Notes: a model not told the origin generated them from the sequence alone. A stretch of 64,000 nucleotides of DNA from an uncultured Bacilli bacterium (GCA_934119965.1 CAKOTA010000005.1:12939-76938); one strand, 5' to 3'. Positions 17,385-61,377 are shown, counted from the first letter of the stretch. Program-made: numbers and translations.

Positions 17385-17696
17385 TTATACATTAGTTTCA
17401 ACATTTTCTTCTTCAAAATCATTAATTCCTGTGACAATCTTTTCAATAACCTCAATTATATTACTGTATACAGCATTTGAAAGTTTATCATCGTCACCAA
17501 ATGAAGCATCTTTATCTATCTTAATATTATCTCCTTTTTCAAAATTTGAAAACAACGCATCATATAATTTTTTTCCATCAACACTTAATGTGCTTTTAGA
17601 AATTTCAAATATTTCTTCTGTCCCATTGTTAATTGTATATTTATCACTTTTATTATACATCGTATATGTTTTTGTCATATCTTTTCCACCTTTCAT
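17385..17696 (-). CDS. Small acidic protein, partner of PHP-ATPase (overlaps its 3' end by 44 nt)
   Basis: The 103-aa ORF is overlapped by the 797-aa gene on the same strand. A hairpin GAGAGC-AAAA-GCTCTC plus T-run terminator follows at ~17215-17240. Confidence 0.4.
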   Translation of the reverse strand: MKGGKDMTKTYTMYNKSDKYTINNGTEEIFEISKSTLSVDGKKLYDALFSNFEKGDNIKIDKDASFGDDDKLSNAVYSNIIEVIEKIVTGINDFEEENVETNV

Positions 17697-20046
17697 TAAT
17701 AGAATCTATTCCACCTTCTATGTTATCAGCAACAATTTTTAAAATATCATAATCCTTATCACAATATTCCAGTGCTCCATTTTGAATATATATTTTATCA
17801 TTTTCATCTTTTCCTATAAAAATAACATTATCAACATCTAAATTAACAATAAATTGGGGATTATGTGTAATTATAATGACCTGTCTATTTTTACTCATAT
17901 CATAAAAATCTCCAAGTATATTTTTCTTTATAGATGGTTGTGATACATCATCTTCAGGTTGATCAATTATATATATTCTATTATCATCAGTTTGATTAGA
18001 TATTAAATCAAAATAAATTTTAGAATTAAAACCTGATGATAATTCCTTTGTTACATCTTTATCACTAGCATCATTTATTGCTTTATCAATTAAAAAATAA
18101 TTATCTATTTCTTTATCTAATTCATTTTTTAGATTTATTAATTTATCATTATAAGAAATGTCTTTATTCCTATTACTAAATCTATCTGGGATAGTACTTG
18201 AATCAATTGAATTTATATCTTTTACACTTTTTCCTAAAACATTATTAATTAAAGTTAGTAAATTGGCGTTTGATACCTCTTTAGTTTTAGTCTTTGCAAC
18301 AAATCTGTATTTTCCAACCTTATTAGATGTTGTCGGTACTTTTTCCTCTTTTATATTAGGTTCATATTTAACTTTATTCCTGTTCTTATAATAGTAATTT
18401 ACAATATTTTCTGAAAAAGAATCCTTATTACTTTCATAATTTGCTATTTTTTCTGTTTCATCTGTTTTAGTCTTCTTTAGTACTTTATCTTTACTTGTGA
18501 ATTCATCATTAATAATATTTATTTTAGAAATTTCAAATAAATTTTGTTTAATTTTATTATTATATTTTGAAATTAATTTAATATTAGAATTTATACTATC
18601 ATTAATATATTTTTCATCTTCTTTATCAAAAAAATCATTTTCCTGTATTTTATCCAATAAAGAATTAATTGATTCAAAATATTCAACTATTTTACCTATT
18701 TTTTTTATTTTTGAATTAATACTAGTAATAGTTGCTTGAGTTACATTTTTAAAATTTAAAGATTTTGAAGTAGCCTCAATAACACATATATCAAAATTTG
18801 TTATTTTATTAAATGCATTACTTTTTTCTTCTTTATTTTTTAATATTGAAATATAATTTTCAATTTCAGATTTATAAATTTCAATATACTTGCTTACTAG
18901 TGGTTCTGCAGGGAAAAATCCATTTAAGAATTCATCACTGTCAAAAGTTTTATTTTCAAACATTTTTCTAATAGAACCTTGCCCATTGAATTTAGAAATA
19001 TTTGATTCAGGTATGGATGAGTTAATTTTAATTTTATTGTTTATTAAATATTCATCATAACTATCTTTAATTTTTTGGTCATTAAGGTAATTATAATTAG
19101 TTAACTTGTGAATAAGTAAAGATTTACCTATCGAATTATCTCCAATTATAACATTAATACCTTTAGAAAGCTTTATATCATATTTATTGTTGTCTATTTC
19201 AATATTAATACTATCTAAATATTTATCAGTAGTAGAATAAAAATTATTAACATAATTAATTCTTTTTGTATTTGTTACTGCCATTGCCAAACCTCTAAAT
19301 GTTGGTAAACATTTTAAATAAGTAAATGAAAAGTCATCATTTTCTTCTGGATATTTAGACCAATCATGACAATCAGAACCTGTTACGAATCTTAAAGTAA
19401 CATCTTTATACTTTTCTTTATTCTTTTCAATATAATTTTTATTAAATATTTCATTTCTTTTTCTCTTGAATTCAAACGATTCAAAATAATCCATGAAAAC
19501 TAATTCATCAAATTTTTCTTTTCCTAAACTCATTACATCGTGACTTCTTGTCTCTTTACTTGATAAGGTCTCTTTTTGATGTGCTATCATTACAACATTT
19601 AAATCTATATTTTTTAAAATATTAAGATATTTATTTTCAGAAAATGAATTTAATTCAATATCGTCATAAAATGGTTTATTGTTTTTTATATCAAATATTT
19701 CATTTTGTATTTTTTTTATTTTTTCTTCATCTTTATCATCAAAAATTGTAATTACATGTAAAACTTTTTTATCATATGTTACTGAAAATTCAACTGCAGG
19801 AAACACTTTTTTAATACTACCTTTGTTTTCTTCTTGCTTTAACTTATTATATATATTGAAATCAAAGTTATCGTGGTCTGAAATAGAACACATATTTATT
19901 TCTCTTTGATTTAGTTTTTCTATTAATAAATCTATATTATCTAAAGTAGATAAATCTACACAATCATCACTTTCTTTGTGTTTAGATGCAATAGAATGAA
20001 TATGAAAATCAACTTTATTCCCTGTTTCAATAATTTTTTCTATCAT
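17653..20046 (-). CDS. PHP-domain phosphoesterase fused to ABC/SMC-like (AAA_21/OLD-type) ATPase
   Basis: N-terminal PHP motifs are present (VDFHIHS, SISDHDNFD, AVEFSV, LHVITIF). The central Walker A is GDNSIGKSLL. The C-terminal Walker B/D-loop is IYIIDQPEDD and the H-loop is IIITHNPQF. Confidence 0.65.
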   Translation of the reverse strand: MIEKIIETGNKVDFHIHSIASKHKESDDCVDLSTLDNIDLLIEKLNQREINMCSISDHDNFDFNIYNKLKQEENKGSIKKVFPAVEFSVTYDKKVLHVITIFDDKDEEKIKKIQNEIFDIKNNKPFYDDIELNSFSENKYLNILKNIDLNVVMIAHQKETLSSKETRSHDVMSLGKEKFDELVFMDYFESFEFKRKRNEIFNKNYIEKNKEKYKDVTLRFVTGSDCHDWSKYPEENDDFSFTYLKCLPTFRGLAMAVTNTKRINYVNNFYSTTDKYLDSINIEIDNNKYDIKLSKGINVIIGDNSIGKSLLIHKLTNYNYLNDQKIKDSYDEYLINNKIKINSSIPESNISKFNGQGSIRKMFENKTFDSDEFLNGFFPAEPLVSKYIEIYKSEIENYISILKNKEEKSNAFNKITNFDICVIEATSKSLNFKNVTQATITSINSKIKKIGKIVEYFESINSLLDKIQENDFFDKEDEKYINDSINSNIKLISKYNNKIKQNLFEISKINIINDEFTSKDKVLKKTKTDETEKIANYESNKDSFSENIVNYYYKNRNKVKYEPNIKEEKVPTTSNKVGKYRFVAKTKTKEVSNANLLTLINNVLGKSVKDINSIDSSTIPDRFSNRNKDISYNDKLINLKNELDKEIDNYFLIDKAINDASDKDVTKELSSGFNSKIYFDLISNQTDDNRIYIIDQPEDDVSQPSIKKNILGDFYDMSKNRQVIIITHNPQFIVNLDVDNVIFIGKDENDKIYIQNGALEYCDKDYDILKIVADNIEGGIDSINERWKRYDKNIYDV

Positions 20047-20114: not shown

Positions 20115-20228
20115 TCCTTTTTATATATATTATTATAGCATAAATTCTGTTAATTTTATTATAAAATGACACTATGACGCATTGTTTGCGAGTACCCCAC
20201 TCATATTTTTGGTGTCATTGTGTCACTC

Positions 20229-20930
20229 TTAGCAGTTTTGATATTTAAATATTATTATTTTATGGTTTATTCTATTCTTTTTTATCTTATTTGCTATTTC
20301 TGGACCATATATTACTTCAAAACTTTTCTTAGCTTCATTATAAGAATTAAAATTAAAATATGTATCTATTTGTTTATCAACAGTAAAGCCATTGGATAAA
20401 ATCCAATTATTATAATCTCTAGTTCTACTATCTTTATTTCTATTTCTTATTTCTTCAAACTCACTATTTTCATCATTTTCAATTAATATGATTGTTCCAT
20501 TAGATTTTAATAATCGTTTTAACTCACTTAAACATTTATTTCTTTCAGTTATATCTATAATTGTACCTAATACCCACGAACAAACTATTAAATCTACTTT
20601 ATCACTTTCTAAATTGATTTTAGATAAATTAGAACATATAAATTCTGAAGTATCTTTTTTTGATTTTACTTTTGCTTTTTCTAGTTGTTTATCTGATAAA
20701 TCTATTCCAATATATTTTTTTGAATATTCCTCTAATATATTTAAAAACTTACCAGTTCCACATCCAGCATCTAAAACAATTTTATCTTTACATATATGTT
20801 CTAAATAAGAACCAACTTTATTTTCTCCATCTTCAGCAATACTAAAGATTTCATAATAATCATTATTTTCATAATATGCTTTAGAATCTTTTAAGAGATT
20901 TTTGGTATCCATTTTCTTCACCCTTTTCAT
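20229..20930 (-). CDS. Class I SAM-dependent methyltransferase
   Basis: Motif I reads VLDAGCGTGKF. The 233-aa gene is the last in the overlapping operon. Confidence 0.75.
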   Translation of the reverse strand: MKRVKKMDTKNLLKDSKAYYENNDYYEIFSIAEDGENKVGSYLEHICKDKIVLDAGCGTGKFLNILEEYSKKYIGIDLSDKQLEKAKVKSKKDTSEFICSNLSKINLESDKVDLIVCSWVLGTIIDITERNKCLSELKRLLKSNGTIILIENDENSEFEEIRNRNKDSRTRDYNNWILSNGFTVDKQIDTYFNFNSYNEAKKSFEVIYGPEIANKIKKNRINHKIIIFKYQNC

Positions 20931-21963
20931 ACATTTTAGTTTCAGGAAAAATCATATCAACCATATATTTAGCAATATTTTGTGATTTACCTATTGCAGG
21001 TCTGAAATGCATATGCACTCCAGGTACTGTGTTGATTTCAATTATTCTATAACTATCATCATTTTGTAATTTTTCTATTGAATTGGTCATATAATCAATT
21101 CCTACATATGGAAGTCCAGGAAATGCATCTAAAACTCTCATACCAATATCAATAACACTAGGATGTGCTCTATCAGTATAATCTTCACATATTCCTCCCA
21201 TAGCAACATTAGAATTTGGTCTTAAATATACTTTTTCTCCTAAAGTTGGAATAGTATCCATACTTATACCATTTGCTTTAATATATTTATACATTTCTTC
21301 ATCTACAAGTATTTCACATAAAGCATTTGTTCTTGGATTCATTCTACGATAATTTTCTATTGAAATTAATTCTTTTATAGAATGTTCCCCATCTCCATAT
21401 ACATGAGCAGGATCTCTATGAAGTACTGCATAATCTCCATTCTTTGTAACAAACACTCTATATTCTTTTGCATTAAAATATTCTTCTATTAGCACTTTAG
21501 TTTGTAATCCCCTATTTTGAGTTATCTTATCTATTGCTTTTAACAAATCGTTTTCAGAAGTTATATTTGTATAAACATCATAACCATGAGAACCAAAAAC
21601 AGGTTTTAAAACAACAGGGCAATCAAATACATTAAATGCTTTTAAAATATAGTCAGAGTCAGTTATATTGAATACTTCTCCCATAGGAACACTAATACCA
21701 TTATTTTGTAAAATATGTTTTGTTATTCCTTTATCTCCAGCAAGTATTGAAACATTATATGGCATTATTGATGAATCTCTATCATAGATTAATTCCTCAT
21801 GACCATTATAAGATGCTTTTATTAATTCTAAACTCTCATCTAATACTTCAACACTTATACCTCTTTTTAACATTTCATATATCAATATTTTTTGATTAGA
21901 ATGTAAATTTTTATAAATGTTTTCCATTTTACCATCTACTTTCGCCTGAATCGTGGCTTTCAC
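20881..21963 (-). CDS. ATP-grasp family ligase
   Basis: The 360-aa protein has an ATP-grasp fold pattern (VVLKPVFGSHGYDV..., EYRVFV, IEINTVPG). It overlaps the methyltransferase gene by 50 nt and the ESR-repeat gene by 35 nt. Confidence 0.7.
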   Translation of the reverse strand: MKATIQAKVDGKMENIYKNLHSNQKILIYEMLKRGISVEVLDESLELIKASYNGHEELIYDRDSSIMPYNVSILAGDKGITKHILQNNGISVPMGEVFNITDSDYILKAFNVFDCPVVLKPVFGSHGYDVYTNITSENDLLKAIDKITQNRGLQTKVLIEEYFNAKEYRVFVTKNGDYAVLHRDPAHVYGDGEHSIKELISIENYRRMNPRTNALCEILVDEEMYKYIKANGISMDTIPTLGEKVYLRPNSNVAMGGICEDYTDRAHPSVIDIGMRVLDAFPGLPYVGIDYMTNSIEKLQNDDSYRIIEINTVPGVHMHFRPAIGKSQNIAKYMVDMIFPETKMYEKGEENGYQKSLKRF

Positions 21964-22456
21964 TTGAACTACTATACGAAGTATAACTAGAACGAGTAGA
22001 ATCTTTTTTAGGTTTTGCAGGTTTTCTAACTAGTTTTTTTACACTACCTATAAGATCATCTAATTCATCATTAGATTGTTCTAACATTCTTAATTGTTTT
22101 TCTTCTTCTGATTCTCTTTTTGCTTCATCTCTTAATCTTTTTAATTCTTCAATTTTTTGTCTTCTTTGTTCTAAAGCTTGATTAATTCTAGGATTATTAG
22201 ATGTAATAGTAGGCATTTCTCTTTCTAACTTTTCTATTAAAGAATCAATATCATCCAAATTATTATATCTAGAATTATTTACTTGACCTCTAATATCACA
22301 TCTGCTTTCACTATCATTTCTACTTTCATTAGAAAAATTATTACTTGAATAACTACATCTACTTTCTCCAGTATCTCTACTTTCACTTGGTCTAGATACA
22401 TATGATGGAGTATATCTACTTCCTCTACTTTCACTATTATTTCTACTTTCTGACAT
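21929..22456 (-). CDS. ESR-repeat protein (Ser/Arg-rich termini, central coiled coil), candidate modification substrate
   Basis: The 175-aa protein carries seven ESR tripeptides (SESR/GESR/NESR) clustered at both termini and ends in ...SESHDSGESRW. The central segment is a charged helix. It lies 1 nt after the DUF3419 gene and overlaps the ATP-grasp gene. Confidence 0.5.
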   Translation of the reverse strand: MSESRNNSESRGSRYTPSYVSRPSESRDTGESRCSYSSNNFSNESRNDSESRCDIRGQVNNSRYNNLDDIDSLIEKLEREMPTITSNNPRINQALEQRRQKIEELKRLRDEAKRESEEEKQLRMLEQSNDELDDLIGSVKKLVRKPAKPKKDSTRSSYTSYSSSSESHDSGESRW

Positions 22457-22457
22457 T

Positions 22458-23306
22458 TTATTTTCCTCCTCTTTTTAAAATTAAAACACCATCTTTTTTA
22501 TCCTGCGAACTTCCTTCTAAAGCACTCTTAAATTCTACTTGTTGGAAGTTAAAAAATATCTCTTTTACTTTTCTTAAATCATCTATTTCTGTTCTAGGAT
22601 TAGAATTTCCTATATCGTATAAATAAGCAAAATATATTATATCTATTTTTTTTTGAAATTCAATTAATAAATCTCTATATTTTTTTAATATATCACAACT
22701 ATACATTAAACTTAAATAATCAGATATATTCGATAAAAACATATAATCGAAATGTTCATCTACTTTTAAATCTTTTAAACTTGTATTTATATAAGTAATA
22801 TTTGCATCCTTTATTTGTTGTTTTAATAAATTATACTTACTTTTTTCTAAATATAAATTTTGCCACAATTTGCTATTAGGATTAAAATATTTTGTATTAA
22901 ATAAAGAAGAGTTTCTTAATTCAATACCATTATTATCAAATTTAGATAATTGCTCTAACCAAAACATTTTACTTTCATCAGACATATCTAAACTTGAGAT
23001 AATACTATAATCTAAATTCATATTACTTTCAAACAAAAGTAAATTTATAAAATCTTCATAAGATAAATTTTTTAGAGCACTAATTTTTAGATCCATATAT
23101 GGTTTTGTTAATGGATTAATATCAAACGTTGTTATCTCAGCTGCTCCCTGTAATATTACATTTAATATATGGTCCGTTGAACCTGTTACTGTAATAACTT
23201 TTTTACCAGTTAAATTCAAATATTTCATATATCCAGCAATATTTTCAGAAGTAAAAGGATATATACTATTAAATCTTCCCATAACATTTTCCTTTACTTT
23301 TTGCAT
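22458..23306 (-). CDS. DUF3419 family protein (BtaA-like SAM-dependent 3-amino-3-carboxypropyl transferase fold)
   Basis: The 282-aa protein has the pattern VITVTGSTDHILNVILQGAAEITTFDINPLTKPYMDLKISALKNLSYEDF, which resembles the DUF3419 ITSAGxNxLDYL...AVDLNPxQ..LLELK signature. Confidence 0.5.
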   Translation of the reverse strand: MQKVKENVMGRFNSIYPFTSENIAGYMKYLNLTGKKVITVTGSTDHILNVILQGAAEITTFDINPLTKPYMDLKISALKNLSYEDFINLLLFESNMNLDYSIISSLDMSDESKMFWLEQLSKFDNNGIELRNSSLFNTKYFNPNSKLWQNLYLEKSKYNLLKQQIKDANITYINTSLKDLKVDEHFDYMFLSNISDYLSLMYSCDILKKYRDLLIEFQKKIDIIYFAYLYDIGNSNPRTEIDDLRKVKEIFFNFQQVEFKSALEGSSQDKKDGVLILKRGGK

Positions 23307-24738
23307 CTAAAAATCTTACTAAAACTTTATCTCTTTTAATTTCTTCTAAAGAATTATCTCTTAATGATTTAGTTGTGATACAAGTCTTATCACTTTCTAA
23401 TACCCAAGGGCATGGACTTACATTACCAAAATTATTTATATATATAAATTTATCTCCTGCAGGACATCTATGAACAAAATTAGGTTGTTTACCAAAATTG
23501 TAATTAACTATTATTTGTCCATTATATTTTTCTCTTAATTCATCAATTTGAGAAATTAATACTTCGTTTGGTACTGTCTTAACTAATGTTCTATCTTGTC
23601 CAGAAACTGGTTCCATTATTGAAAAGATTATTTCATCAGCTTGTAAACCTACTGAATCCAAAATCAAACTTTCTAAATCGTATTGATTATTTGAATGTAT
23701 AACAGAACCTATTCTTACTTTATTAACTGATTTTCTTAATGCTTCTAAACCTCTTATAGTTCTTTCATAAGTATTATTTCCTCTTACTGATTCATGTTCC
23801 AATTTATCTCCATCTAAACTAACATGTATCATTTTTAACTTTAATTGATTTAATAACTCTACTTTTTCAGGAGTTATTAAAGATGCATTAGTAGATATAT
23901 CAGTAATCAATCTTTCACTTGCATATTTTAAGATTTCTAAAATATCTTTTCTAATAAGTGGTTCTCCACCAGTTATCTTTAAATGTTTGAAATTATGTAA
24001 AACTAATTCATCTATAATATGATAACATTCTTCAGTAGTTAATTCCCCATCAATTTTTTTATTATTACAAGAAAATATACAATAAGAACAATTATAATTA
24101 CATTGATGTGTAATTTCCCAAATTGCCTTACCTTCATTATTTGGTAAAGTAAATTTACATTCCATACTATTTAAAAATTCATTAATTTTGTTTATATCAT
24201 AACCATTATCAGTATTAATTATTAAAAAGTTGTCTGAAAGATATTCTTCTAAATTATCTATTCTTTGTAGTTCAAATCTTTTTAATATATCCTCTTTGGA
24301 TAAATCACTTTCAATTAATCTCTCTAATCTTGTTTTATCAGAAGCAGTAACATAAATTATTTTATCAAACTTATCTCTTAGGTCATCATTAAGTATTAAT
24401 GCCCAATCAACAATTATTGTTTTATTATCAAAACAATCTAAATAATTAAATAAATATTTATACAATACCCCTTTATATTTTTCCATATATTCTTCATTAC
24501 TATAAATATATTTATTTAAAATTAAAGAATTTATTTCATCATATTCTTTTAATTCAGGAATTACATTTTTTAACTCTAAAATATATGAAGCATTTTTATA
24601 TAAACTTCTTCTAAAAATATCTACATCTACATAAATGTAATCAGGACTATATTTTAAAATATCCTCTGATATAGTTGTTTTTCCTGATGACATTCCACCT
24701 GTTATTCCTATTAATCTATTCATACCAACACATCCCAT
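23269..24738 (-). CDS. P-loop nucleoside/nucleotide kinase-like domain fused to radical SAM enzyme with SPASM/twitch-like C-terminus
   Basis: The N-terminal P-loop is GITGGMSSGKTT. The radical SAM cluster motif is CNYNCSYC and the GGEPL motif follows. Additional C-terminal Cys residues (HRCPAGD...SPCPW...CI) are present. Confidence 0.7.
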   Translation of the reverse strand: MGCVGMNRLIGITGGMSSGKTTISEDILKYSPDYIYVDVDIFRRSLYKNASYILELKNVIPELKEYDEINSLILNKYIYSNEEYMEKYKGVLYKYLFNYLDCFDNKTIIVDWALILNDDLRDKFDKIIYVTASDKTRLERLIESDLSKEDILKRFELQRIDNLEEYLSDNFLIINTDNGYDINKINEFLNSMECKFTLPNNEGKAIWEITHQCNYNCSYCIFSCNNKKIDGELTTEECYHIIDELVLHNFKHLKITGGEPLIRKDILEILKYASERLITDISTNASLITPEKVELLNQLKLKMIHVSLDGDKLEHESVRGNNTYERTIRGLEALRKSVNKVRIGSVIHSNNQYDLESLILDSVGLQADEIIFSIMEPVSGQDRTLVKTVPNEVLISQIDELREKYNGQIIVNYNFGKQPNFVHRCPAGDKFIYINNFGNVSPCPWVLESDKTCITTKSLRDNSLEEIKRDKVLVRFLDAKSKGKCYGKI

Positions 24739-26059
24739 ACTTTATTGGAGTAAATGCTGCTATTTTAGTATTCTTATCAGCATTCTCATATATATTCCAA
24801 TCTATATCATTTGAAACCATATTATAATTTTCTTTTTCTAATTCTTTTATAAGTTTATTTATTTCATTAGTTAAATCATTATTTTCTATATTAGGTTTAT
24901 TACTATGAATATATTGTGTTTTATTTACTACTTCTTTATTCTCGTTATATATTGGTGTACCAACACGATATGCTAAATAATGAAGTCTTAATTCGTGAGG
25001 CATTATTGATAAAATTAATTCTTTTGTTTTTATAATATCTTCTTTAGTTGATGATGGATAATCCAAAATAAAACTTGTTCTTATTCTATAACCAATTTTC
25101 TTTGTTTCTTCTATTACTTGTTTTATATAATTAATATCCATATCTTTATTCATTAATTTTAATAATCTTTCACTACCTGTTTCAATACCATAATGAACCC
25201 ATCTAAATCCAACTTTATACATATATTCTAAAAGTTCTTTATCATAACATTTAATACTACATAATGCCCCAAATAAACATTTGATATTTCTTTTTTCAAT
25301 TTCTTTACAAATTTCTATCATTCGTTCTTTATTGACAGTTGCATTATCATCTAAAAAGATTATTTTCTTTGTATTATATTTTTCTATTAACATTTCTATT
25401 TCATTTACAACATCTGTAACATTTCTTCCATTCCACTTACCAAAATAATATGGTGTAGTACAAAATTTACAAGTTCCAACACAACCTCTTGAAGTAATAA
25501 TAGTTCTTGTATCCATATATTTAGTAATATCTAATAAATCTCTATTAGGAATTGGTAACTTATTAAAATCATTTGTTAATATTTTCTTTTCAGTAAAGTA
25601 TATATCTTCTTTATTTTTTATAACTAAATTAGGAATACTTTTTAATTTATCTATATTATTAATATTTTCTATTACATCAGTAATAATTTCGTCTGCTATT
25701 CCTCTAATAACAACATCTATACCATTATCTAAAAATTTTTGATAAAAGTGAGTAGATGTTTTTCCTATCATTATGAATTTAGTAGGTTTATTTGTATTAT
25801 GAATTGTTTCAAATATATTTTGTATTGTTTCAGTAGTATGTAATGGTAATTGATAATCATAGACAAAAACAACTATATTTTCATCAGATAAATATTCATT
25901 AATATTATTATTCATTCTATTAACATCCATATCAATTACTTTTACTCTATCAAATTTTTTATTTATAATTGTTGCTATTTGTAATACATCTAATGGTTCA
26001 GCTAAAATAGACCTATTTGTAAATGGTTTATTTGCTGGATTAACTACTAAAACATTCAT
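24716..26059 (-). CDS. B12-binding domain radical SAM enzyme (class B rSAM)
   Basis: An N-terminal cobalamin-binding Rossmann-like region is followed by the radical SAM motif CVGTCKFC. The 447-aa gene is first in the operon and has an extended -10 TGCTATAAT upstream at ~26085-26110. Confidence 0.75.
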   Translation of the reverse strand: MNVLVVNPANKPFTNRSILAEPLDVLQIATIINKKFDRVKVIDMDVNRMNNNINEYLSDENIVVFVYDYQLPLHTTETIQNIFETIHNTNKPTKFIMIGKTSTHFYQKFLDNGIDVVIRGIADEIITDVIENINNIDKLKSIPNLVIKNKEDIYFTEKKILTNDFNKLPIPNRDLLDITKYMDTRTIITSRGCVGTCKFCTTPYYFGKWNGRNVTDVVNEIEMLIEKYNTKKIIFLDDNATVNKERMIEICKEIEKRNIKCLFGALCSIKCYDKELLEYMYKVGFRWVHYGIETGSERLLKLMNKDMDINYIKQVIEETKKIGYRIRTSFILDYPSSTKEDIIKTKELILSIMPHELRLHYLAYRVGTPIYNENKEVVNKTQYIHSNKPNIENNDLTNEINKLIKELEKENYNMVSNDIDWNIYENADKNTKIAAFTPIKYGMCWYE

Positions 26060-26198
26060 AATAAATCCCCCCTTAAAAGTTGGTTTCTATTATAGCACAA
26101 AATTCATTAAATAGCTATTCTTTTCTTGTTTTTATAAAAAAATACTATGATATAACTTATTTACCATTATTAGCAATAACATATCATAGTATTAATTT

Positions 26199-26498
26199 TT
26201 AATTTTTCTTAGGCAGTTTATCATAATCATACTTTTCCATAATTGGATTGAGTAAGTCATTTGCTTTTGTTAATTCTTCTACTGCTTGTTCTAGTGTATA
26301 TTCACTTTTACCTTCTTTAAGTAATTTTAAATGTTCTGTAACTTCAAATATTATAAATCCTACTTCTCTTGCTTTTTCTATTTTATTAAAATCAAATTGT
26401 AATAAATCAGTTTCTGATTCTTTATATTGTTCAATTAAGTCTTTTAAATCTTTACTGGATTTATTTGCATATTTATCTTTAGAAAAATAGAAAAGCAT
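26199..26498 (-). CDS. Hypothetical protein
   Basis: The 99-aa ORF is followed by a long hairpin terminator (ATACTATGATAT ... ATATCATAGTAT plus T7) at 26141-26195. GGTATCTA direct repeats lie upstream at 26596-26650. Confidence 0.4.
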   Translation of the reverse strand: MLFYFSKDKYANKSSKDLKDLIEQYKESETDLLQFDFNKIEKAREVGFIIFEVTEHLKLLKEGKSEYTLEQAVEELTKANDLLNPIMEKYDYDKLPKKN

Positions 26499-29179: not shown

Positions 29180-29716
29180 TTAATAATTATTAGCTTTTTC
29201 TTCAAAGTAGCTTTGTGGATGATTACATACTGGACATACTTCTGGGGCTTTTTCACCAAAATGAATATGACCACAATTTCTGCAAATCCACATTTTTGGT
29301 TGTTCTTTTATAAATACTTTTCCTGATTCAATATTATCTAATAATTGTCTATATCTTTCTTCGTGTTCTTTTTCTATTTTACCTACTTCTGTAAATAGAT
29401 ATGCTATATCATCAAATCCTTCTTCTTTAGCTGTTTTAGCAAATCCTTCATACATATCTGTCCATTCATAGTTTTCCCCGTTAGCAGCATCTAACAAGTT
29501 AGCTTTTGTATCAGGCATTCCATTATGTAATAGTTTAAACCATATTTTTGCGTGTTCTTTCTCATTGTTTGCTGTTTCTTCAAAAATAGCAGCTATTTGT
29601 TCATAACCATCTTTTTTAGCTTTGCTTGCATAATAAGTATATTTATTACGAGCTTGTGATTCTCCTGCAAATGCAGTCATTAAGTTTTGTTCTGTTTTTG
29701 TTCCTTTTAATTCCAT
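29180..29716 (-). CDS. Rubrerythrin
   Basis: Ferritin-like diiron motifs (E...EKEH x2) are followed by a C-terminal rubredoxin-like CRNCGH...CPVCNHP. Confidence 0.85.
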
Positions 29717-39187: not shown

Positions 39188-39273
39188 TGGTACCGGCCAA
39201 GGGACTTGAACCCTCACGATATTGCTACCAATGGATTTTGAATCCATCGCGTCTACCATTCCGCCAGACCGGT
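39188..39273 (-). tRNA. tRNA-Leu (anticodon CAA), type II with long variable arm
   Basis: The minus-strand sequence is ACCGGTCTGGCGGAATGGTAGACGCGATGGATTCAAAATCCATTGGTAGCAATATCGTGAGGGTTCAAGTCCCTTGGCCGGTACCA. A 7-bp acceptor stem, the CAA anticodon in a 7-nt loop, a long variable stem-loop, the T-loop GGTTCAAGTCC and an encoded CCA end are all visible. Confidence 0.85.
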
Positions 39274-54039: not shown

Positions 54040-54948
54040 TTATCGCCTCAAACTTCCTCCAGACACTTCATAAGCGTCTGTTACTAAGAAAAATGCTTTA
54101 GGATCTATTCCTAAGATTCCTTCTTTAGCTAAAAAATAATCTTTTGTTGGTATAATACACATTATTACTTTTTGATGATTACCAGTATAACCACCACGAC
54201 CATCTAATACCGTAACCCCTTGACTTAAATGTTCCATTATAAATTTTTTAACTGATGTTTCGTGTTCAGTAACAATATAAAATGCTTTACATTGAGATAT
54301 TCCTAATATTACTTTATCAGCCATTAAACTTATTATATATAATACTATTACAGCATACATTACATTTTCCCAAGCATAAACATTATTATTTAGAAAAAAT
54401 CCTGCGGCTAAAACTATAATACCATCAGACATCAACATTGATTTTCCAATAGATACTTTTCCATATTTCGCAATTATTTGATTTATTATGTCAGTACCAC
54501 CTGTTGAAAACCCAGATTTAAAATTAGTTCCTGATCCTAATCCTGCAATTACGGCTCCAAATACAACTATTAAAATCATATTATCAATATTAAAATTAAT
54601 ATATTCACCCAAATTAGCAGTTAATTTAATACATAATGGATACATTATTGAACCAGCAATTGATCCTTTTGTTTTTTCCCAGCCTAATGTAAAATAACTC
54701 AATATTAATAATAACATTGAAACTATGAATACAAATAGTGAGGTATCTATTCCAAATAGTTTATTAACAACAATAGCAATACCTGATACACCACCATAGA
54801 CAATACTACGAGGTAAGAAAAATACATTGAAGGCAATTGAAACTAATAAACACCCAATAAATAGTGTAAAGTATCTTTTAATTTTATTTTTATTATATAT
54901 TTTTTCAATTATTTCATCTAATTTTTCTTTTTTCTTAAAAATACTCAT
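54040..54948 (-). CDS. YitT family membrane protein (DUF161 + DUF2179)
   Basis: A polytopic N-terminal domain and a C-terminal DUF2179-like region are present. The length is 302 aa. Confidence 0.65.
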   Translation of the reverse strand: MSIFKKKEKLDEIIEKIYNKNKIKRYFTLFIGCLLVSIAFNVFFLPRSIVYGGVSGIAIVVNKLFGIDTSLFVFIVSMLLLILSYFTLGWEKTKGSIAGSIMYPLCIKLTANLGEYINFNIDNMILIVVFGAVIAGLGSGTNFKSGFSTGGTDIINQIIAKYGKVSIGKSMLMSDGIIVLAAGFFLNNNVYAWENVMYAVIVLYIISLMADKVILGISQCKAFYIVTEHETSVKKFIMEHLSQGVTVLDGRGGYTGNHQKVIMCIIPTKDYFLAKEGILGIDPKAFFLVTDAYEVSGGSLRR

Positions 54949-56049
54949 TTTGTTTTTCCTTTCAAATTATCATTTATAAATTTATCAATTTCTCCATCTA
55001 ATACTTTTACAACATTAGTTTCTTCAGTATTTGTTCTATGGTCTTTTACTAATGAATATGGATGCATTACATAGCTCCTGATTTGTGATCCAAAATTAAT
55101 ATCTGATAAATTACCTTTTATATCCATTAGTTCTTTATTTCTTTTTTCTAATTCTAAGTTATATAGTTTATTTTTTAGTACTTCCATAGCTGTTTCTTTG
55201 TTTTGAATTTGACTTCTTTCATTTTGACAAGTAACTACTATTTTAGTAGGTAAATGGGTTATTCTAACTGCCGAATCAGTTGTATTTACTCCTTGTCCAC
55301 CTTTACCACTACTTCTATATACATCTATTCTTAAATCTGCTTCATTTATTTCTATATCAATATTTTCTTTTTCAAATAATGGTGTTACATCAACTGAAGC
55401 AAATGAAGTATGTCTTCTTGAGTTAGAATCAAATGGTGATATTCTAACTAGTCTATGAACTCCTTTTTCATTTTTTAAATATCCATAAGCATTAATTCCT
55501 TTTACTATCAATGTTATACTCTTTATTCCAGCTTCATCACCATATTCGCAATCAATGACATCTACTTTATATTTCTTTTTATTACACCATCTGTCATACA
55601 TTCTATATAACATATTTACCCAGTCGCAAGCTTCTGTTCCGCCAGCCCCAGAATGTAGTTCTAAAACAGCATCTAACTTATCATATGGTCCATTTAATAA
55701 TATTTCAATTTCTAGATCTTGAATAGTTTCATTTATTTCATTAACATCATTTTCAATTAATGATTTTAATTCATCATCATTAGAATCTTTTAATTCTTTT
55801 ATTATTTCAAAATTATCATTGATTTTTTGTTTTAAAGTTTCAACTTTTTCTACTTTATTTTTTAAATCGTTCAATTCATTTATTATTTTTTCGCTTAATC
55901 TTTTATCATTCCAAAAATTAGGTTCATTCATTTTTTCTTCTAATTCTTTTATTCTAATTTTTTTCTTGTCTGGTTCAAAGAGCCCTCCATAATTCTTCAA
56001 TTCTATTAGAATAATTCAAATATGTGTTATAAAGTTCATTTAATTCCAT
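54945..56049 (-). CDS. prfB: Peptide chain release factor 2 (requires programmed +1 frameshift)
   Basis: The SPF motif (RISPFDSNSRRHTSF) and GGQ motif (GKGGQGVNTTDSAVRITH) are present. Frame 0 runs from the ATG at 56049 (RBS AGGAGG) as MELNELYNTYLNYSNRIEELWRAL then meets TGA. The +1 frame continues as FEPDKKK, matching the track ORF. Confidence 0.85.
55985..55990 (-). other. prfB +1 programmed frameshift site CTT TGA A with upstream internal SD GGAGGG
   Basis: The minus-strand sequence is TGG AGG GCT CTT TGA ACC. This is the classic RF2 autoregulatory shift site, with an SD-like element 3 nt upstream of the CUU. Confidence 0.8.
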
Positions 56050-57610: not shown

Positions 57611-58324
57611 TTAACTTGAAGAAAGTGTATATGGGTTAAAATAGTATCCTGGAACTGTTCCATTTATAATTTTTATTGATATTGGCACTACTGTTTCTAC
57701 TTGAATTTGTTTTGTATCAAATGGTAGTATTACTTGTTCTTCAGCTATTATTTTTACCCCTAATTCAATTACAGCATTATTAATTCCATACTCTTTTATA
57801 TCTGTTACTATATCGGTTGTTATATCACCAATTAAACTCAATTTGACTGGTATTTTGGGTCCTAAATTAGCAAGCAATCCATTATTAAATATAATTCCTG
57901 ATGGTACTTGATAAATAATGCCACTCTTCAATTTTTCTGAATTAACATTAATATTTTCATTATCGGATAACCCAATATCTCCTAATTCACCCTTCTCTAA
58001 TTTTCTTAAATATTCTTTAACATTTATACTAACTTCTTTTAAAATATTATTAATCTCATATGTATTATAATTTGTTTCTTTTCCATCAGTTATAAATAAA
58101 TTATCACTTTTAAATTTTTCACCTAACTCATTATCAATAGCATTTCCGATTACTAAAACTGCTATTTTTTTTGCCTGTTTTTCAGCATAATTCATTATAA
58201 TTGGAGTTAACTTTTTTCCTATAAAATTAAACACTACAAATAATGTAATTATAATCATTACAATTAATAAAATTATAACATTGTGATTTTTGTTTTTTTT
58301 CTTTTTTAGTTTTATCTTTCTCAT
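57611..58324 (-). CDS. Sporulation protein YunB-like
   Basis: An N-terminal TM anchor is followed by a ~200-aa domain with a YunB-like pattern (AEKQAKKIAVLVIGNAIDNEL...). The length is 237 aa. Confidence 0.45.
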   Translation of the reverse strand: MRKIKLKKKKNKNHNVIILLIVMIIITLFVVFNFIGKKLTPIIMNYAEKQAKKIAVLVIGNAIDNELGEKFKSDNLFITDGKETNYNTYEINNILKEVSINVKEYLRKLEKGELGDIGLSDNENINVNSEKLKSGIIYQVPSGIIFNNGLLANLGPKIPVKLSLIGDITTDIVTDIKEYGINNAVIELGVKIIAEEQVILPFDTKQIQVETVVPISIKIINGTVPGYYFNPYTLSSS

Positions 58325-58362: not shown

Positions 58363-58911
58363 TTAAACAAATAAATATTTGCCTCTTTTAACTTCTTGTT
58401 CATTGTACTTATCTACTATTACAATTTCATTTTTTATTAATGACTGTTGAACATCGATAATTCTTTGATTTTTTGAACCTCTATATGGGGCTTCATAAGT
58501 TTTTTCTTCTAGAACAAACTTACCATCAATTAGGACATCAATATTTTTTAATAATTCAATTATGACTGGTTTCGTTCTCCCAAGTGTCTTTAATTGGTCA
58601 AATGTAAAACCTGTATATGTCCATACATTTAAGCCTATCTTTTTAGCAAACTTAGCTATTTCTAAACAAGCGTCTGGTTGCATAAATGGGTCGCCTCCTG
58701 ACAAGGTTATACCATCTTGGAATTTTAAGTTCATCAATTCCTTTTTTATATCCTCAATATCTATCAAGGCACCACCATTAAAATCGTGAGTTTCTGGATT
58801 ATGACATCCTTTACAATTATGACTACAACCTTGGGTCCAAATTACAGTTCTTATTCCTTCACCATCTACAACACTATCATATTGAAGTGGAGCAGCTAAT
58901 CTAATTTTCAT
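58363..58911 (-). CDS. nrdG: Anaerobic ribonucleoside-triphosphate reductase activating protein
   Basis: The radical SAM motif is GCSHNCKGCHNPETH and the length is 182 aa. Its ATG overlaps by 1 nt (TAATG) the stop of the upstream glycyl-radical ORF. Confidence 0.85.
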   Translation of the reverse strand: MKIRLAAPLQYDSVVDGEGIRTVIWTQGCSHNCKGCHNPETHDFNGGALIDIEDIKKELMNLKFQDGITLSGGDPFMQPDACLEIAKFAKKIGLNVWTYTGFTFDQLKTLGRTKPVIIELLKNIDVLIDGKFVLEEKTYEAPYRGSKNQRIIDVQQSLIKNEIVIVDKYNEQEVKRGKYLFV

Positions 58912-59094: not shown

Positions 59095-61377
59095 CTACTT
59101 ATCTAATAATATACCTTCAAATTCTCTTCTTCCACATTTTGGACATACATCTTTAATAATTCCAACATATCCACAAACAGGATCTCTATCTACTGGGTGG
59201 TTAATTGCTCCATAACCAATTCCAGATTCTTTCATTAATCTTATTACTTTTTCGAATGCTTCAACATTTTGAGTTAAATCTCCGTCCATTTCAATATAAC
59301 TAATATGTCCAGCATTAGTTAAAGCATGGAATGGAGCTTCTTTTTTAATTTTATTTACTATTGAAGTATTGTAATAAACCGGTACATGGAATGAATTTGT
59401 ATAATAATCTCTATCAGTTACACCTTTAATTTTTCCATATATTGCTTTATCAATATTAACAAATCTACCTGATAAACCTTCAGCTGGAGTTGCTAAACAA
59501 GTAAAATTCAAATTGTATTTTTCACTATATTCATCACATTTATCACGCATAAATTTAATGATTTTAATTCCTAGTTTTTCAGCCTCATCACTTTCTCCGT
59601 GATGTTCACCGATTAGAGCTTTTAATGTTTCAGCTAAACCAATAAATCCAATTGATAGTGTACCATGTTTAAGTACTCTTCTAATTCTATCATTTGGTTT
59701 TAATGTTTCCCCATCATTCCATACTCCTTCTCCTAATAAGAATGGAAAATTATAAACTTTTTTACTACATTGAATTTCAAATCTTTCTAATAATTGGTCT
59801 TTAACTAATTCCATTGTTTCTTCTAATTCATTAAAGAAACCTTTCATATCAGCTTTATCTCTTTCTTTTAAACAAATACCATGTTTAATACCAATTCTTG
59901 GTAAGTTAATTGAAGTGAATGATAAATTTCCTCTTCCTGTTACTATTTGATTTTGTTTATCAGTAACATCTCCAATAACTCTTGTACGACATCCCATATA
60001 AGATATTTCTGTATTATAATCATCTGGTTTATAGTAAATTATGTTGTGTGGAGCATCTATAAAAGAGAAATTTGGAAATAATCTTTTAGCAGATACTTTA
60101 CAAGCTAATTTAAATAAATCATAATTTGGATCTCCGGGATTATAGTTTATTCCTTCTTTTACTTTAAATATAGATACTGGGAATATTGGAGTTTCTCCCA
60201 TTCCTAGTCCAGCATCTGTTACTTTTAAGAAATTATCTATTACCATTCTCCCTTCTTTTGAAGTACAAGTACCAAAGTTAATTGATGAGAAAGGTACTTG
60301 GGCACCAGCACGGGAATGCATTGTATTTAAATTATGAATAAATGCTTCCATTGCTTGATATGTCATTCGATCAGTTTTTTGTAATGCTTTTTCATAAGAT
60401 AAATCGAATATTCTTTTTACTTCTTTTGATTCTTTATAAAATGGTGCGAATAATTCTATATCTAATTCAATTGTATCAAGTTTATCTATTTCTTTTATTA
60501 CTCTATCAAAGTTTACAAATGAAATGAAATCACTATATTCTAATAAATCATATAATTGTTGTTTAAATTGTTTTTTAAATGTTTTTACAACTCCTGGTGC
60601 CATATAATAATCAAATGCTGGAATTGATTGACCACCATGTTGATCATTTTGATTTGCTTGAATTGCAATGGCTGCAAGTGCTGAATACGACATTATATCA
60701 TTTGGTTCTCTTAGGTGTCCATGACCTGTATCAAATCCACCTTTAAATAATTTTTCTAGATTTATTTGACAACAAGTTGTTGTTCCCATTGGTAGAAAGT
60801 CCATATCGTGAATATGAATTTCACCGCTATCGTGTGCTTCAGCAAATTTTGGTTTCATTAAATATGCTTTAGCAAATTCTTTTGATACAGTTGAACCATA
60901 TTGTAACATTGTTCCCATAGCTGTATCTCCATCGATATTAGCATTTTCTCTTTTAGCGTCTTCTTCATTAGCTGATTTAAGTCCTAAAGATTCTATTGAT
61001 TTTAAAAATTTATGAGTTTTCTTTTCTCCGAAGAATAATTCTCTTGAAGAATTTCTTCTTTCTCTATATTCGGAAAAAGATTTATATACATCGTTGTATC
61101 CTTTTTTTTCTAATTCCTCTTCAATTAAATCTTGAATTTGTTCAATTTTAATTTTTGTTTCATTTTTGAAATCTTTTTCGATTCTGTTCATTACAGATTG
61201 ATATACTTTTTGAATATCTTTCTCATTATATACCTTTGTTTCTCCATCATCATCTGTATCATTTACGATACTATCAAAGCCTTTTTTTATGGCAATTGCT
61301 ATTTTTGATCCATCAAAATCTACTTTTTTGCCATTTCTTTTTTCTACTTTTAATGTAGCTAATAATTCTTCAACCAT
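59095..61377 (-). CDS. nrdD: Anaerobic ribonucleoside-triphosphate reductase (class III), body lacking glycyl-radical tail
   Basis: An N-terminal ATP-cone (KVDFDGSKIAIAIKKG) and the large catalytic barrel are present. The C-terminal Zn ribbon CGYVGIIKDVCPKCG is present. The ORF ends 12 aa after CPKC without the RVxGY motif. Confidence 0.85.
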   Translation of the reverse strand: MVEELLATLKVEKRNGKKVDFDGSKIAIAIKKGFDSIVNDTDDDGETKVYNEKDIQKVYQSVMNRIEKDFKNETKIKIEQIQDLIEEELEKKGYNDVYKSFSEYRERRNSSRELFFGEKKTHKFLKSIESLGLKSANEEDAKRENANIDGDTAMGTMLQYGSTVSKEFAKAYLMKPKFAEAHDSGEIHIHDMDFLPMGTTTCCQINLEKLFKGGFDTGHGHLREPNDIMSYSALAAIAIQANQNDQHGGQSIPAFDYYMAPGVVKTFKKQFKQQLYDLLEYSDFISFVNFDRVIKEIDKLDTIELDIELFAPFYKESKEVKRIFDLSYEKALQKTDRMTYQAMEAFIHNLNTMHSRAGAQVPFSSINFGTCTSKEGRMVIDNFLKVTDAGLGMGETPIFPVSIFKVKEGINYNPGDPNYDLFKLACKVSAKRLFPNFSFIDAPHNIIYYKPDDYNTEISYMGCRTRVIGDVTDKQNQIVTGRGNLSFTSINLPRIGIKHGICLKERDKADMKGFFNELEETMELVKDQLLERFEIQCSKKVYNFPFLLGEGVWNDGETLKPNDRIRRVLKHGTLSIGFIGLAETLKALIGEHHGESDEAEKLGIKIIKFMRDKCDEYSEKYNLNFTCLATPAEGLSGRFVNIDKAIYGKIKGVTDRDYYTNSFHVPVYYNTSIVNKIKKEAPFHALTNAGHISYIEMDGDLTQNVEAFEKVIRLMKESGIGYGAINHPVDRDPVCGYVGIIKDVCPKCGRREFEGILLDK

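Follow-up and report, generated by a model that had tools for sequence, protein, structure and literature searches.

A conserved fusion of a CoaE-like kinase domain and a radical SAM enzyme in a six-gene operon of uncultured Bacilli, with an ESR-repeat protein as candidate substrate

Among the radical S-adenosylmethionine (SAM) enzymes (rSAMs) that mature peptides made by the ribosome and modified after translation (RiPPs), SuiB and SkfB carry a recognition domain at the N-terminus, while MftC acts on a C-terminal Tyr. The full SPASM motif found in the C-terminal region of such enzymes reads CX9-15GX4C ... CX2CX5CX3C ... C and thus comprises seven cysteines. Enzymes of the ATP-grasp family form amide bonds at carboxylates, and proteins with a DUF3419 domain make up the BtaA family. 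BtaA takes the 3-amino-3-carboxypropyl group from SAM and places it on a hydroxyl, after which BtaB N-methylates the product, the two activities being fused in eukaryotic Bta1 (PMC10685587), and ApyD is a beta-C-methyltransferase that makes beta-methyl-Tyr at the penultimate residue (PMC10635010). Here, we analyse a stretch of 64,000 nucleotides (the window; GCA_934119965.1, CAKOTA010000005.1:12939-76938) from an uncultured Bacilli bacterium, in which one gene of a conserved six-gene operon encodes a P-loop kinase domain, similar to dephospho-CoA kinase (CoaE), which catalyses the final step in making coenzyme A, fused to a radical SAM enzyme. In this protein, the kinase domain holds the N-terminal place where RiPP rSAM maturases usually carry a peptide-recognition domain.

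A preliminary description of the window had placed a fusion gene at positions 23269-24738, and a single open reading frame (ORF) indeed fills this interval, although it lies on the minus strand (the same frame of the plus strand is crowded with stops). The longest reading of this kinase-radical SAM ORF is 489 aa, with its stop codon at 23269-23271, and all motifs quoted in that description (GITGGMSSGKTT, CNYNCSYC, GGEPL, HRCPAGD and SPCPW) are present. As homologues are almost all 484 aa in length with the N-terminus MNRLIG, and as the corresponding ATG at 24723 overlaps by 8 nt with the stop of the upstream gene (ATGAATAG), the gene probably starts at this ATG and encodes a 484-aa protein; residue numbers are counted from this Met. 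Pfam identified CoaE (PF01121) at residues 9-165 (47.0 bits; gathering threshold (GA) 27), Radical_SAM (PF04055) at residues 208-347 (83.4 bits; GA 29.5) and, below its GA of 21.5, SPASM (PF13186) at residues 425-485 (18.5 bits). The same length and Pfam architecture recur in more than 120 protein clusters at 62-99% identity, and the fusion was found on hundreds of contigs, one of them of 1.41 Mb (single members occur on up to 342 contigs, and the member with 342 belongs to a 90% cluster of 435 sequences). The fusion is therefore neither an assembly nor a frameshift artefact, and the claim that some 190 kinase-like N-terminal residues are joined to an rSAM enzyme describes a genuine and conserved protein. 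A fused homologue was absent from the plasmid and phage collections searched, which returned generic rSAM matches alone (best MftC, 30% identity), and the protein of locus L016 (22% identity over residues 4-307) was rejected as a homologue: it is a Rossmann-rSAM protein without relationship to the fusion, and its gene is part of a polysaccharide locus.

The CoaE-family kinase domain (residues 1-186; 24166-24723, minus strand) is recognised by its Pfam match, by a residue signature and by structural comparison, and its Walker A motif (P-loop), GGMSSGKTT, occupies residues 9-17 (24673-24699, minus strand). An AlphaFold model of the fusion (mean pLDDT 84.6, pTM 0.60) matched the CoaE structure 1uf9 in Foldseek with a TM score of 0.69 on the target, while sequence matches to solved CoaEs were weak (E about 1e-5). 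TIGR00152, the dephospho-CoA kinase equivalog of NCBIfam, gave 59.7 bits and did not reach its cut-off of 65.55; a profile built from typical low-GC CoaEs scored 70-112 bits on the corresponding domains in close homologues. Of the 1.84 billion representatives scanned, a few emerged as close relatives, both fused and standalone (~180-200 aa), followed by ordinary CoaEs at 23-35% identity. Mutagenesis of the Mycobacterium tuberculosis CoaE defined four critical residues, namely K14 (ATP), D32 (Mg2+/catalysis), L114 (acceptor cleft) and R140 (transition state) (PMC3019153). All four are kept in the fusion as K15, D35 (which, with D33, forms the DxD motif), L109 and R135, the first three being invariant in the clade of fused and standalone relatives and R135 present in 36 of its 38 members (the standalone proteins P0175 and P0179 lack both lid arginines, R132 and R135). 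Since these residues are conserved, the P-loop domain is not degenerate; the CoaE-like assignment of the N-terminus is upheld, and the degenerate, non-catalytic P-loop that the preliminary description had considered finds no counterpart in the sequence. Furthermore, T8, G9, G14, K15, T17, D35, R38, L109, R132, R135, D140, R149 and Q153 are invariant among 25 fused homologues, and a comparison of 151 sequences, from the clade and from typical CoaEs, showed no variation at G14 and K15.

The features that distinguish this clade emerged from a comparison of its 38 members with 113 typical CoaE representatives. Catalytic and donor-side residues are common to both groups; on the acceptor side, the typical consensus (A38, F74, N84, H88-P89, E112 and R139-D140) is replaced in the clade by R38, Y74, K84, Y88, K89, N112/D113 and S139, all invariant or nearly so, and N70, W107 and D113 likewise count among the clade-specific (near-)invariant residues. 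Six to nine positions of a nine-position signature are present in all 38 clade members, as opposed to none or one in 106 of the 113 typical CoaEs; four more clade members sat inside the 'typical' set, and scores between the two classes were almost non-existent. These results define a discrete CoaE subfamily. Its phosphoryl-transfer machinery has probably been kept and its acceptor site rebuilt, and the domain is best read as a neofunctionalised dephospho-CoA kinase paralogue that serves one pathway. It may be speculated that the cleft charges contributed by R38, K84 and D113 would suit a Glu-Ser-Arg (ESR) motif.

The radical SAM core extends over about residues 196-372 (23608-24138, minus strand), with GGEP at residues 252-255 and most positions modelled at a pLDDT above 90. 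Its CNYNCSYC motif (24079-24102, minus strand; CxxxCxxC) supplies C208, C212 and C215, the predicted ligands of the radical SAM [4Fe-4S] cluster, and these cysteines are invariant in 24 fused homologues and in 20 homologues in which the rSAM is encoded separately; GGEP is invariant as well. Together with the above-threshold PF04055 match, this supports the designation as a canonical radical SAM core. The tail had been called SPASM-like; it is indeed Cys-rich and contains C-x12-G-x4-C and one C-terminal Cys, yet the homologue alignment shows no CxxCx5Cx3C in it, and it is consequently a half-SPASM (Twitch-like) domain rather than a full SPASM domain (23272-23481, minus strand; C420-x12-G-x4-C438 and C480). 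Four cysteines, namely C420, C438, C480 and, shortly before the core, C189 (24157-24159), persist in fused and split forms alike and constitute a predicted ligand set that would be sufficient for one auxiliary Fe-S cluster, while conservation of C219, C233 and C448 is confined to the fused lineage. The rSAM/SPASM families of NCBIfam, NirJ included, all scored far under their cut-offs (AhbD 108 vs 500 bits, MftC 104 vs 265, StsB 103 vs 625, PqqE 75 vs 381 and SkfB 68 vs 300). PDB sequence matches of this part comprised SkfB (5e-14), BlsE, AbmM, PqqE and MoaA, and those of Foldseek SuiB (E 8e-14), PqqE, SkfB, BlsE, viperin, MoaA and anSME; GDGT-MAS was matched weakly. The relatives are thus peptide maturases, which rank on top, and nucleoside/nucleotide enzymes, and the best explanation of the rSAM part would be an enzyme of the PqqE/SkfB/MftC/SuiB type with one auxiliary Fe-S cluster.

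The fusion gene is the second of six minus-strand genes, the starts and stops of which overlap or abut, in the order B12-rSAM, kinase-rSAM, DUF3419 protein, ESR-repeat protein, ATP-grasp ligase and methyltransferase. The same six genes in the same order were found, at 64-99% identity and with differing flanking genes, at loci L001-L005, L017-L019 and L097-L099, which originate from Bacilli/Mollicutes metagenome-assembled genomes (MAGs) and from gut or rumen metagenomes. Loci L006 and L020 carry the same gene set with kinase and rSAM encoded by separate, adjacent genes; in these and in L100/L101, all from Clostridia MAGs, a kinase of ~185 aa and an rSAM of 313-314 aa are specified by overlapping genes at the same operon position (the methyltransferase is absent from L100). 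The split rSAM family amounts to at least 120 clusters (69-100% identity). In yet another arrangement, protein P0177 joins the clade kinase to the operon's methyltransferase (43% identical to that of the window), the order of its locus, L102, being B12-rSAM, kinase-methyltransferase and rSAM. The 413-aa kinase-methyltransferase (L102:1297-2538, plus strand) lies between the B12-rSAM and a 293-aa rSAM gene, and the GC content of 36% points to another lineage.

A distant kinase-rSAM fusion, P0192 (37% identity), bears the clade signature and is encoded at L103 and L104 in the order B12-rSAM, fusion, DUF3419-methyltransferase fusion and C-terminal ATP-grasp fragment. The DUF3419 and methyltransferase domains are united there in one protein of 530 aa (L103:10562-12154, plus strand; the second sample, L104, is alike), while residues 233-343 are all that is left of the ATP-grasp ligase (L103:12197-12568, plus strand); this operon is either rearranged or decaying. 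The L103 contig also encodes ribosomal proteins L7Ae and S28e (Pfam), because of which it is probably archaeal, as well as a PPAT-CoaE fusion protein (the genes in question are at L103:1063-2193, minus strand, and L103:1-351). The PPAT-CoaE protein has the typical CoaE signature, beside P0192 with that of the clade, and we conclude that the kinase is a paralogue of the housekeeping enzyme, at least in the L103 lineage. If this contig is archaeal, the operon occurs in both domains of life. We further conclude that the kinase is an obligate member of the pathway and that its fusion partner is not fixed; the fusion marks a shared pathway or complex and is not proof of one coupled reaction. The suggestion that phosphorylation is coupled to a radical step is plausible, but weakened as a necessary reading, since the kinase also exists as a separate gene or fused to the methyltransferase.

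The fourth gene of the operon encodes a protein of 175 aa (21929-22456, minus strand), identified as the candidate substrate by its sequence and family motifs. It contains seven ESR tripeptides (20,000 shuffles gave 0.49 on average and never more than five), starts with MSESR and ends with SESHDSGESRW; a central YNNLDDIDSLIE motif follows the N-terminal repeats and precedes a predicted helical, charged region. In the family (70 clusters, the proteins of which are located on the same contigs as the fusion, judging by contig-length fingerprints), the MSESR start is present in 66 clusters and the ESRW end in 54, 47 of these reading GESRW within a sequence that is typically ...SESHDSGESRW. ESR occurs on average 5.1 times per protein, and 333 of the 357 occurrences have S or G as the preceding residue. 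Those ESR proteins that accompany the split-type genes keep MSESRGGESR and a YTPSY-like stretch and lack the ESRW end. A repeat maintained at the DNA level was ruled out, as the ESR codons differ between distant loci, which implies selection at the protein level. The protein, 100-250 aa in length, adjoins the maturases in 15 of 18 loci examined, its gene being located between the DUF3419 and ATP-grasp genes in every locus that carries it. In contrast, an ESR ORF was found neither within 9 kb of the operon in L103/L104 nor on the 7.9-kb contig L102.

As regards the remaining members of the operon, the first gene (24716-26059, minus strand) encodes a B12-binding-type radical SAM enzyme of 447 aa, assigned from NCBIfam and synteny, for which the best NCBIfam matches, both under cut-off, were ApyD (132 bits; cut-off 750) and the MCR glutamine C-methyltransferase (112 bits). 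The enzyme also weakly matches a lipid B12-rSAM family, and its orthologues show a weak precomputed Pfam match to the B12-binding domain. The third gene (22458-23306, minus strand; orthologues start at an internal Met at ~23282) specifies a DUF3419 (BtaA-like, SAM-dependent) protein of 282 aa, in which residues 12-129 alone align to PF11899 (56.6 bits; GA 28.2; profile positions 6-129 of 385). The ATP-grasp ligase (20881-21963, minus strand), assigned by NCBIfam and synteny to the cyanophycin-synthetase G-domain/GshB type, has its probable start at ~21927, immediately behind the ESR stop codon, as judged from gene calls in L098; it scored below the respective cut-offs with cyanophycin synthetase (232 bits; profile positions 165-475) and GshAB (197 bits). 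The last gene (20229-20930, minus strand) encodes a class I SAM methyltransferase (Methyltransf_11, 75 bits; synteny). None of the six operon proteins reached an NCBIfam cut-off, and RiPP recognition element (RRE), PqqD-like, protease or transporter domains were not detected in the six conserved genes using Pfam and NCBIfam.

Taken together, these features suggest that the operon may specify a protein- or RiPP-like modification pathway that acts on the ESR-repeat protein, with the kinase working alongside the radical enzymes, an interpretation to which we would give somewhat less than an even chance and which we nevertheless favour because ribosomal peptides are the substrates of those characterised enzymes to which the two radical enzymes are most closely related. 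These are SkfB, PqqE, SuiB, MftC and StsB in the case of the fusion and ApyD in the case of the B12-rSAM, and several relatives of both would seem to work at C-terminal aromatic residues. The most likely substrate would be the ESR-repeat protein. According to this proposal, the six gene products would form one translationally coupled modification machine of which the kinase-rSAM fusion is one subunit. The kinase domain would transfer phosphate from ATP to a hydroxyl that belongs to, or is attached to, the ESR motif (in the simplest case that of Ser), and the adjoining rSAM domain might then abstract a hydrogen from a neighbouring residue to yield a cross-link or another rearrangement, with the phosphate serving as either a recognition handle or a leaving group. 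The B12-rSAM could add a C-methyl group, DUF3419 and the methyltransferase an aminocarboxypropyl or methyl group, and the ATP-grasp ligase could form an amide bond. The sequence data establish the domain anatomy, the conserved catalytic residues, the discrete kinase subfamily, the synteny of the operon, its split and alternative fusion forms and the motif statistics of the ESR protein; the substrate, the phosphorylated atom and all chemical steps are inferred. A stronger version, which is possible though doubtful, holds that this is a new multi-step modification of the ESR motifs and termini, in which a CoaE-derived kinase has been retargeted from nucleotide ribose to a peptide hydroxyl and its phosphorylation primes the radical chemistry of the fused rSAM domain (for example a phosphate elimination triggered by the radical, or cross-linking).

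Several observations weigh against a pathway that modifies the ESR protein. The conserved operon includes no RRE, protease or exporter (Pfam, NCBIfam), and the nearest relatives of the kinase phosphorylate a ribose 3'-OH rather than a protein, the adenine-pocket Leu of the M. tuberculosis CoaE being kept as L109. The ATP-grasp, DUF3419 and methyltransferase families are best known from small-molecule or lipid chemistry. The window protein falls only 6 bits under the TIGR00152 cut-off, and NCBI calls a 99%-identical protein 'dephospho-CoA kinase'. Lastly, the ESR protein is not always adjacent, since L103/L104, which keep the B12-rSAM, the kinase-rSAM and the DUF3419-methyltransferase, and L102 show no gene for it.

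On account of these points, other functions of the operon were weighed. The principal competitor, which we consider unlikely, is a pathway towards a small molecule (a conjugate of a nucleoside or an amino acid) in which phosphorylation would be cryptic. One of the two radical enzymes would form an intermediate with an adenosyl or ribose moiety, the CoaE-like domain would phosphorylate the ribose hydroxyl of this intermediate in the way that CoaE treats dephospho-CoA, and the ATP-grasp, DUF3419 and methyltransferase proteins would elaborate the product, leaving the ESR protein as a scaffold, an accessory or an unrelated component. The activity of the CoaE family on the adenosine 3'-OH and the conserved L109 are compatible with such a pathway, as are the resemblance of the rSAM domain to BlsE, AbmM, MoaA and viperin, that of the ATP-grasp ligase to GshB and the CphA G domain, and the loci (L103/L104) without a nearby ESR gene. 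A precedent is provided by sinefungin, in the formation of which a B12-rSAM adenosylates arginine, a kinase 2'-phosphorylates and later enzymes accept the phosphorylated compound (bioRxiv 10.64898/2026.05.21.726688), although the family of the kinase SinF is not named in that paper or its supplement. An arginase, phosphatase, transporter or nucleoside-specific enzyme was not found in the operon by means of Pfam and NCBIfam, however, and the ESR protein is encoded inside the operon in 15 of the 18 loci examined, with strongly conserved termini and repeats. In addition, the acceptor-side motifs of the kinase are changed throughout, including A38, which is replaced by an invariant Arg in the cleft. 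Rather improbable is the simpler notion that the N-terminal domain is the cell's own dephospho-CoA kinase, fused to an rSAM in a reduced genome, in which case the fusion would say little on radical chemistry. The NCBI name of MFR5904249.1 (a member of the 99%-identical cluster), the PF01121 match above GA, the near-threshold TIGR00152 score and the retention of every mutationally defined catalytic residue agree with it. A second CoaE was seen neither in the 64-kb window nor in the flanks of related loci (the metagenome loci with a typical CoaE included none from an organism closely related to that of the window), and reduced genomes often keep just the last steps of coenzyme A synthesis (PMC8721197). 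Conversely, the H-P, E112 and R139 motifs are replaced in the discrete subfamily that includes the domain, and it is always in the operon, be it encoded on its own, with a radical SAM gene on either side, as in Clostridia, or joined to the methyltransferase of the operon, as in another lineage, while a canonical PPAT-CoaE coexists with it on L103.

Equally improbable is a P-loop domain that acts not as a kinase but as a nucleotide-binding or ATP-dependent module for substrate recruitment in place of an RRE. Its position corresponds to that of the recognition domains of SuiB and SkfB, the closest structural matches, no RRE was detected in the operon (Pfam, NCBIfam), and P0175 and P0179 dispense with R132 and R135; yet the strict conservation of the Walker A Lys and the catalytic Asp, and of the lid Arg in 36 of 38 members, argues for phosphoryl transfer, and the standalone and methyltransferase-fused forms indicate that the domain works untethered from the rSAM. 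A lipid head-group pathway, in which DUF3419 and the methyltransferase would act as BtaA/BtaB while the kinase and radical enzymes modify the lipid, has a very small probability. The DUF3419 match covers the first third of the Pfam profile (6-129 of 385), L103 unites DUF3419 and the methyltransferase in one protein, in the manner of BtaA and BtaB in Bta1, and the B12-rSAM and the fusion rSAM weakly match lipid B12-rSAMs and GDGT-MAS, respectively. Such a pathway is difficult to reconcile with an alignment of 118 DUF3419 residues and no more, with the absence of membrane or acyl-handling genes from the operon and with the ESR protein and peptide-type rSAM relatives, which it does not explain. 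The least credible option is a viperin-like antiviral module, in which, on the model of prokaryotic viperin-kinase pairs, the kinase makes a nucleoside triphosphate that the rSAM converts to a chain-terminating analogue. The PADLOC models 'viperins associated with kinases' and 'viperin-kinase fusion' do match (75 and 34 bits, respectively, in a library without thresholds), viperin structures are among the Foldseek matches, and the next gene in the window encodes a defence-like TrlF-family ATPase. Against this, NF038283 (prokaryotic viperin, NCBIfam) reached only 59.5 of the required 180 bits, the fusion contains a conserved auxiliary-cluster Cys set whereas viperins are not known to have an auxiliary-cluster domain, the conserved partners belong to biosynthesis, and conservation beside the operon does not extend to the TrlF-like gene.

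With respect to transcription, an extended -10 element (TG-C-TATAAT, TGCTATAAT; 26089-26097, minus strand) ends 29 nt upstream of the B12-rSAM ATG. It is conserved in an alignment of the upstream regions of 10 loci and is followed by a GGGGGG ribosome-binding site; a sporulation promoter was considered and dropped, as the conserved element is of the housekeeping-type extended -10 class. RecG, upstream of the operon, ends in a terminator-like hairpin, and the gene downstream of the operon has its own TGCTATAAT element at 20132-20140. A 99-aa ORF (26199-26498, minus strand) without a family match lies between RecG and the operon promoter and is conserved in L004 only (84%), and a strong promoter-like site, TTGAAA-16-TATAAT, is located at 26546-26519. 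Rfam identified no family near the operon and no riboswitch was found, a tRNA gene (39191-39273, minus strand) being the only Rfam match at the gathering threshold in the window.

The gene that follows the operon (17653-20046, minus strand) encodes a 797-aa protein with a PHP domain and an AAA-like ATPase domain (TrlF family, 127 bits; cut-off 350), which also weakly matches the anti-phage Ppl, GajA and PtuA models and was not detected by tblastn beside the operon in L001-L006. No exporter is conserved with the operon across loci, a putative C39-type ABC transporter, of the bacteriocin-exporter kind, after the operon being found in L003 only: this protein of 704 aa (L003:12862-14976, plus strand; one Mollicutes MAG) is encoded directly after the operon, and its N-terminus is C39-peptidase-like by eye. 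Two ABC exporter genes lie upstream of the operon in L100. In a single strain, L097, an island (L097:3451-8176, plus strand) that encodes a glycosyltransferase, an APH/fructosamine-type kinase, a 381-aa radical SAM protein and a NUDIX hydrolase lies upstream of the operon, in the position that FtsA, FtsZ and RecG take in related strains.

The lineage of the window is an uncultured, low-GC (24%) group of Bacilli with a small genome (contigs of up to 1.41 Mb). It appears to be an endospore former, since stage IV sporulation protein A (SpoIVA; 62078-63553, plus strand; 695 bits, above cut-off) and YunB (57611-58324, minus strand) are encoded in the window, and the anaerobic ribonucleotide reductase NrdD (59095-61377, minus strand) and its activase NrdG (58363-58911, minus strand) would be consistent with a strict anaerobe. 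A rubrerythrin gene is located at 29180-29716. Release factor RF2 (prfB) is encoded at 54945-56000, and UGA is therefore a stop codon and translation table 11 appropriate; a search for an RF2 frameshift site near prfB gave nothing relevant.

Should the operon indeed modify the ESR protein, it would represent a new P-loop kinase subfamily, derived from a universal enzyme of coenzyme A synthesis and now serving a pathway for a peptide or natural product, and a new radical SAM maturation class that combines a B12-rSAM, a Twitch-rSAM, a BtaA-like transferase and a cyanophycin-type ligase. If the kinase has been retargeted as proposed above, a new peptide-derived cofactor or structural modification would exist in abundant uncultured small-genome gut Bacilli, in Clostridia and, apparently, in an archaeon. 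Gut metagenomes of humans and animals commonly contain the operon and, its hosts being uncultured, the product could matter for their physiology or interactions. Moreover, if the domain has changed its substrate, the automatically assigned label 'dephospho-CoA kinase' would wrongly credit reduced genomes with a step of coenzyme A synthesis.

Full-text literature searches, which included a graspetide survey, returned no description of the fusion or operon, and in the sources searched the protein goes by nothing more specific than 'dephospho-CoA kinase' or a generic rSAM label. This outcome, together with the lack of any match at a curated family cut-off, speaks against membership of the protein in an already characterised family. 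The preliminary description had also treated the kinase-rSAM architecture as unrecognised; in this respect a precedent exists in the PADLOC 'viperin-kinase fusion' model, even though the fusion itself is no viperin. Kinases occur in RiPP and in nucleoside pathways, and in view of these and of the viperin-kinase fusions the kinase-rSAM operon would not seem to be categorically new.

Compared to the known systems, the kinase domain shares with CoaE (PF01121/TIGR00152; PDB 1uf9, 2if2 and 1jjv) the fold, the three-part layout, the Walker A motif, the catalytic Asp, the lid Arg and the cleft Leu, and differs from it in its score below the TIGR00152 cut-off, its replaced acceptor-side residues, its confinement to one operon and its fusion to an rSAM or a methyltransferase. 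The prokaryotic viperin (pVip) and pVip-kinase systems of PADLOC likewise consist of a P-loop kinase followed by a radical SAM domain (the models match at 34-75 bits), whereas the fusion is not a viperin by NF038283, possesses an auxiliary-cluster tail and a CoaE-like kinase and has biosynthetic rather than defence partners. With sinefungin biosynthesis (SinC/SinF), the operon has in common a B12-rSAM and a kinase in one cluster, the phosphate there being a handle that later enzymes require; the arginase, PEARLs, phosphatase and corrinoid adenosyltransferase of that pathway are not present in the window operon, while the sinefungin cluster has no second rSAM, DUF3419 or ESR protein, the likeness being one of logic. 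As in BtaA/BtaB (Bta1), DUF3419 and a class I methyltransferase share an operon and are fused in L103/L104, although only the first ~120 DUF3419 residues align to the profile and a lipid context is missing here. SkfB, PqqE, SuiB, MftC and StsB are the best matches for residues ~196-484 of the fusion (MftC at 104 bits in a near full-length alignment), with which they share C-x12-G-x4-C, auxiliary cysteines and a small protein with a hyper-conserved motif encoded alongside. The fusion is set apart from these maturases by one auxiliary Cys set in place of the seven-Cys SPASM, by a kinase as N-terminal domain in place of a peptide-recognition element and by a candidate substrate of 100-250 aa with motifs repeated at both termini.

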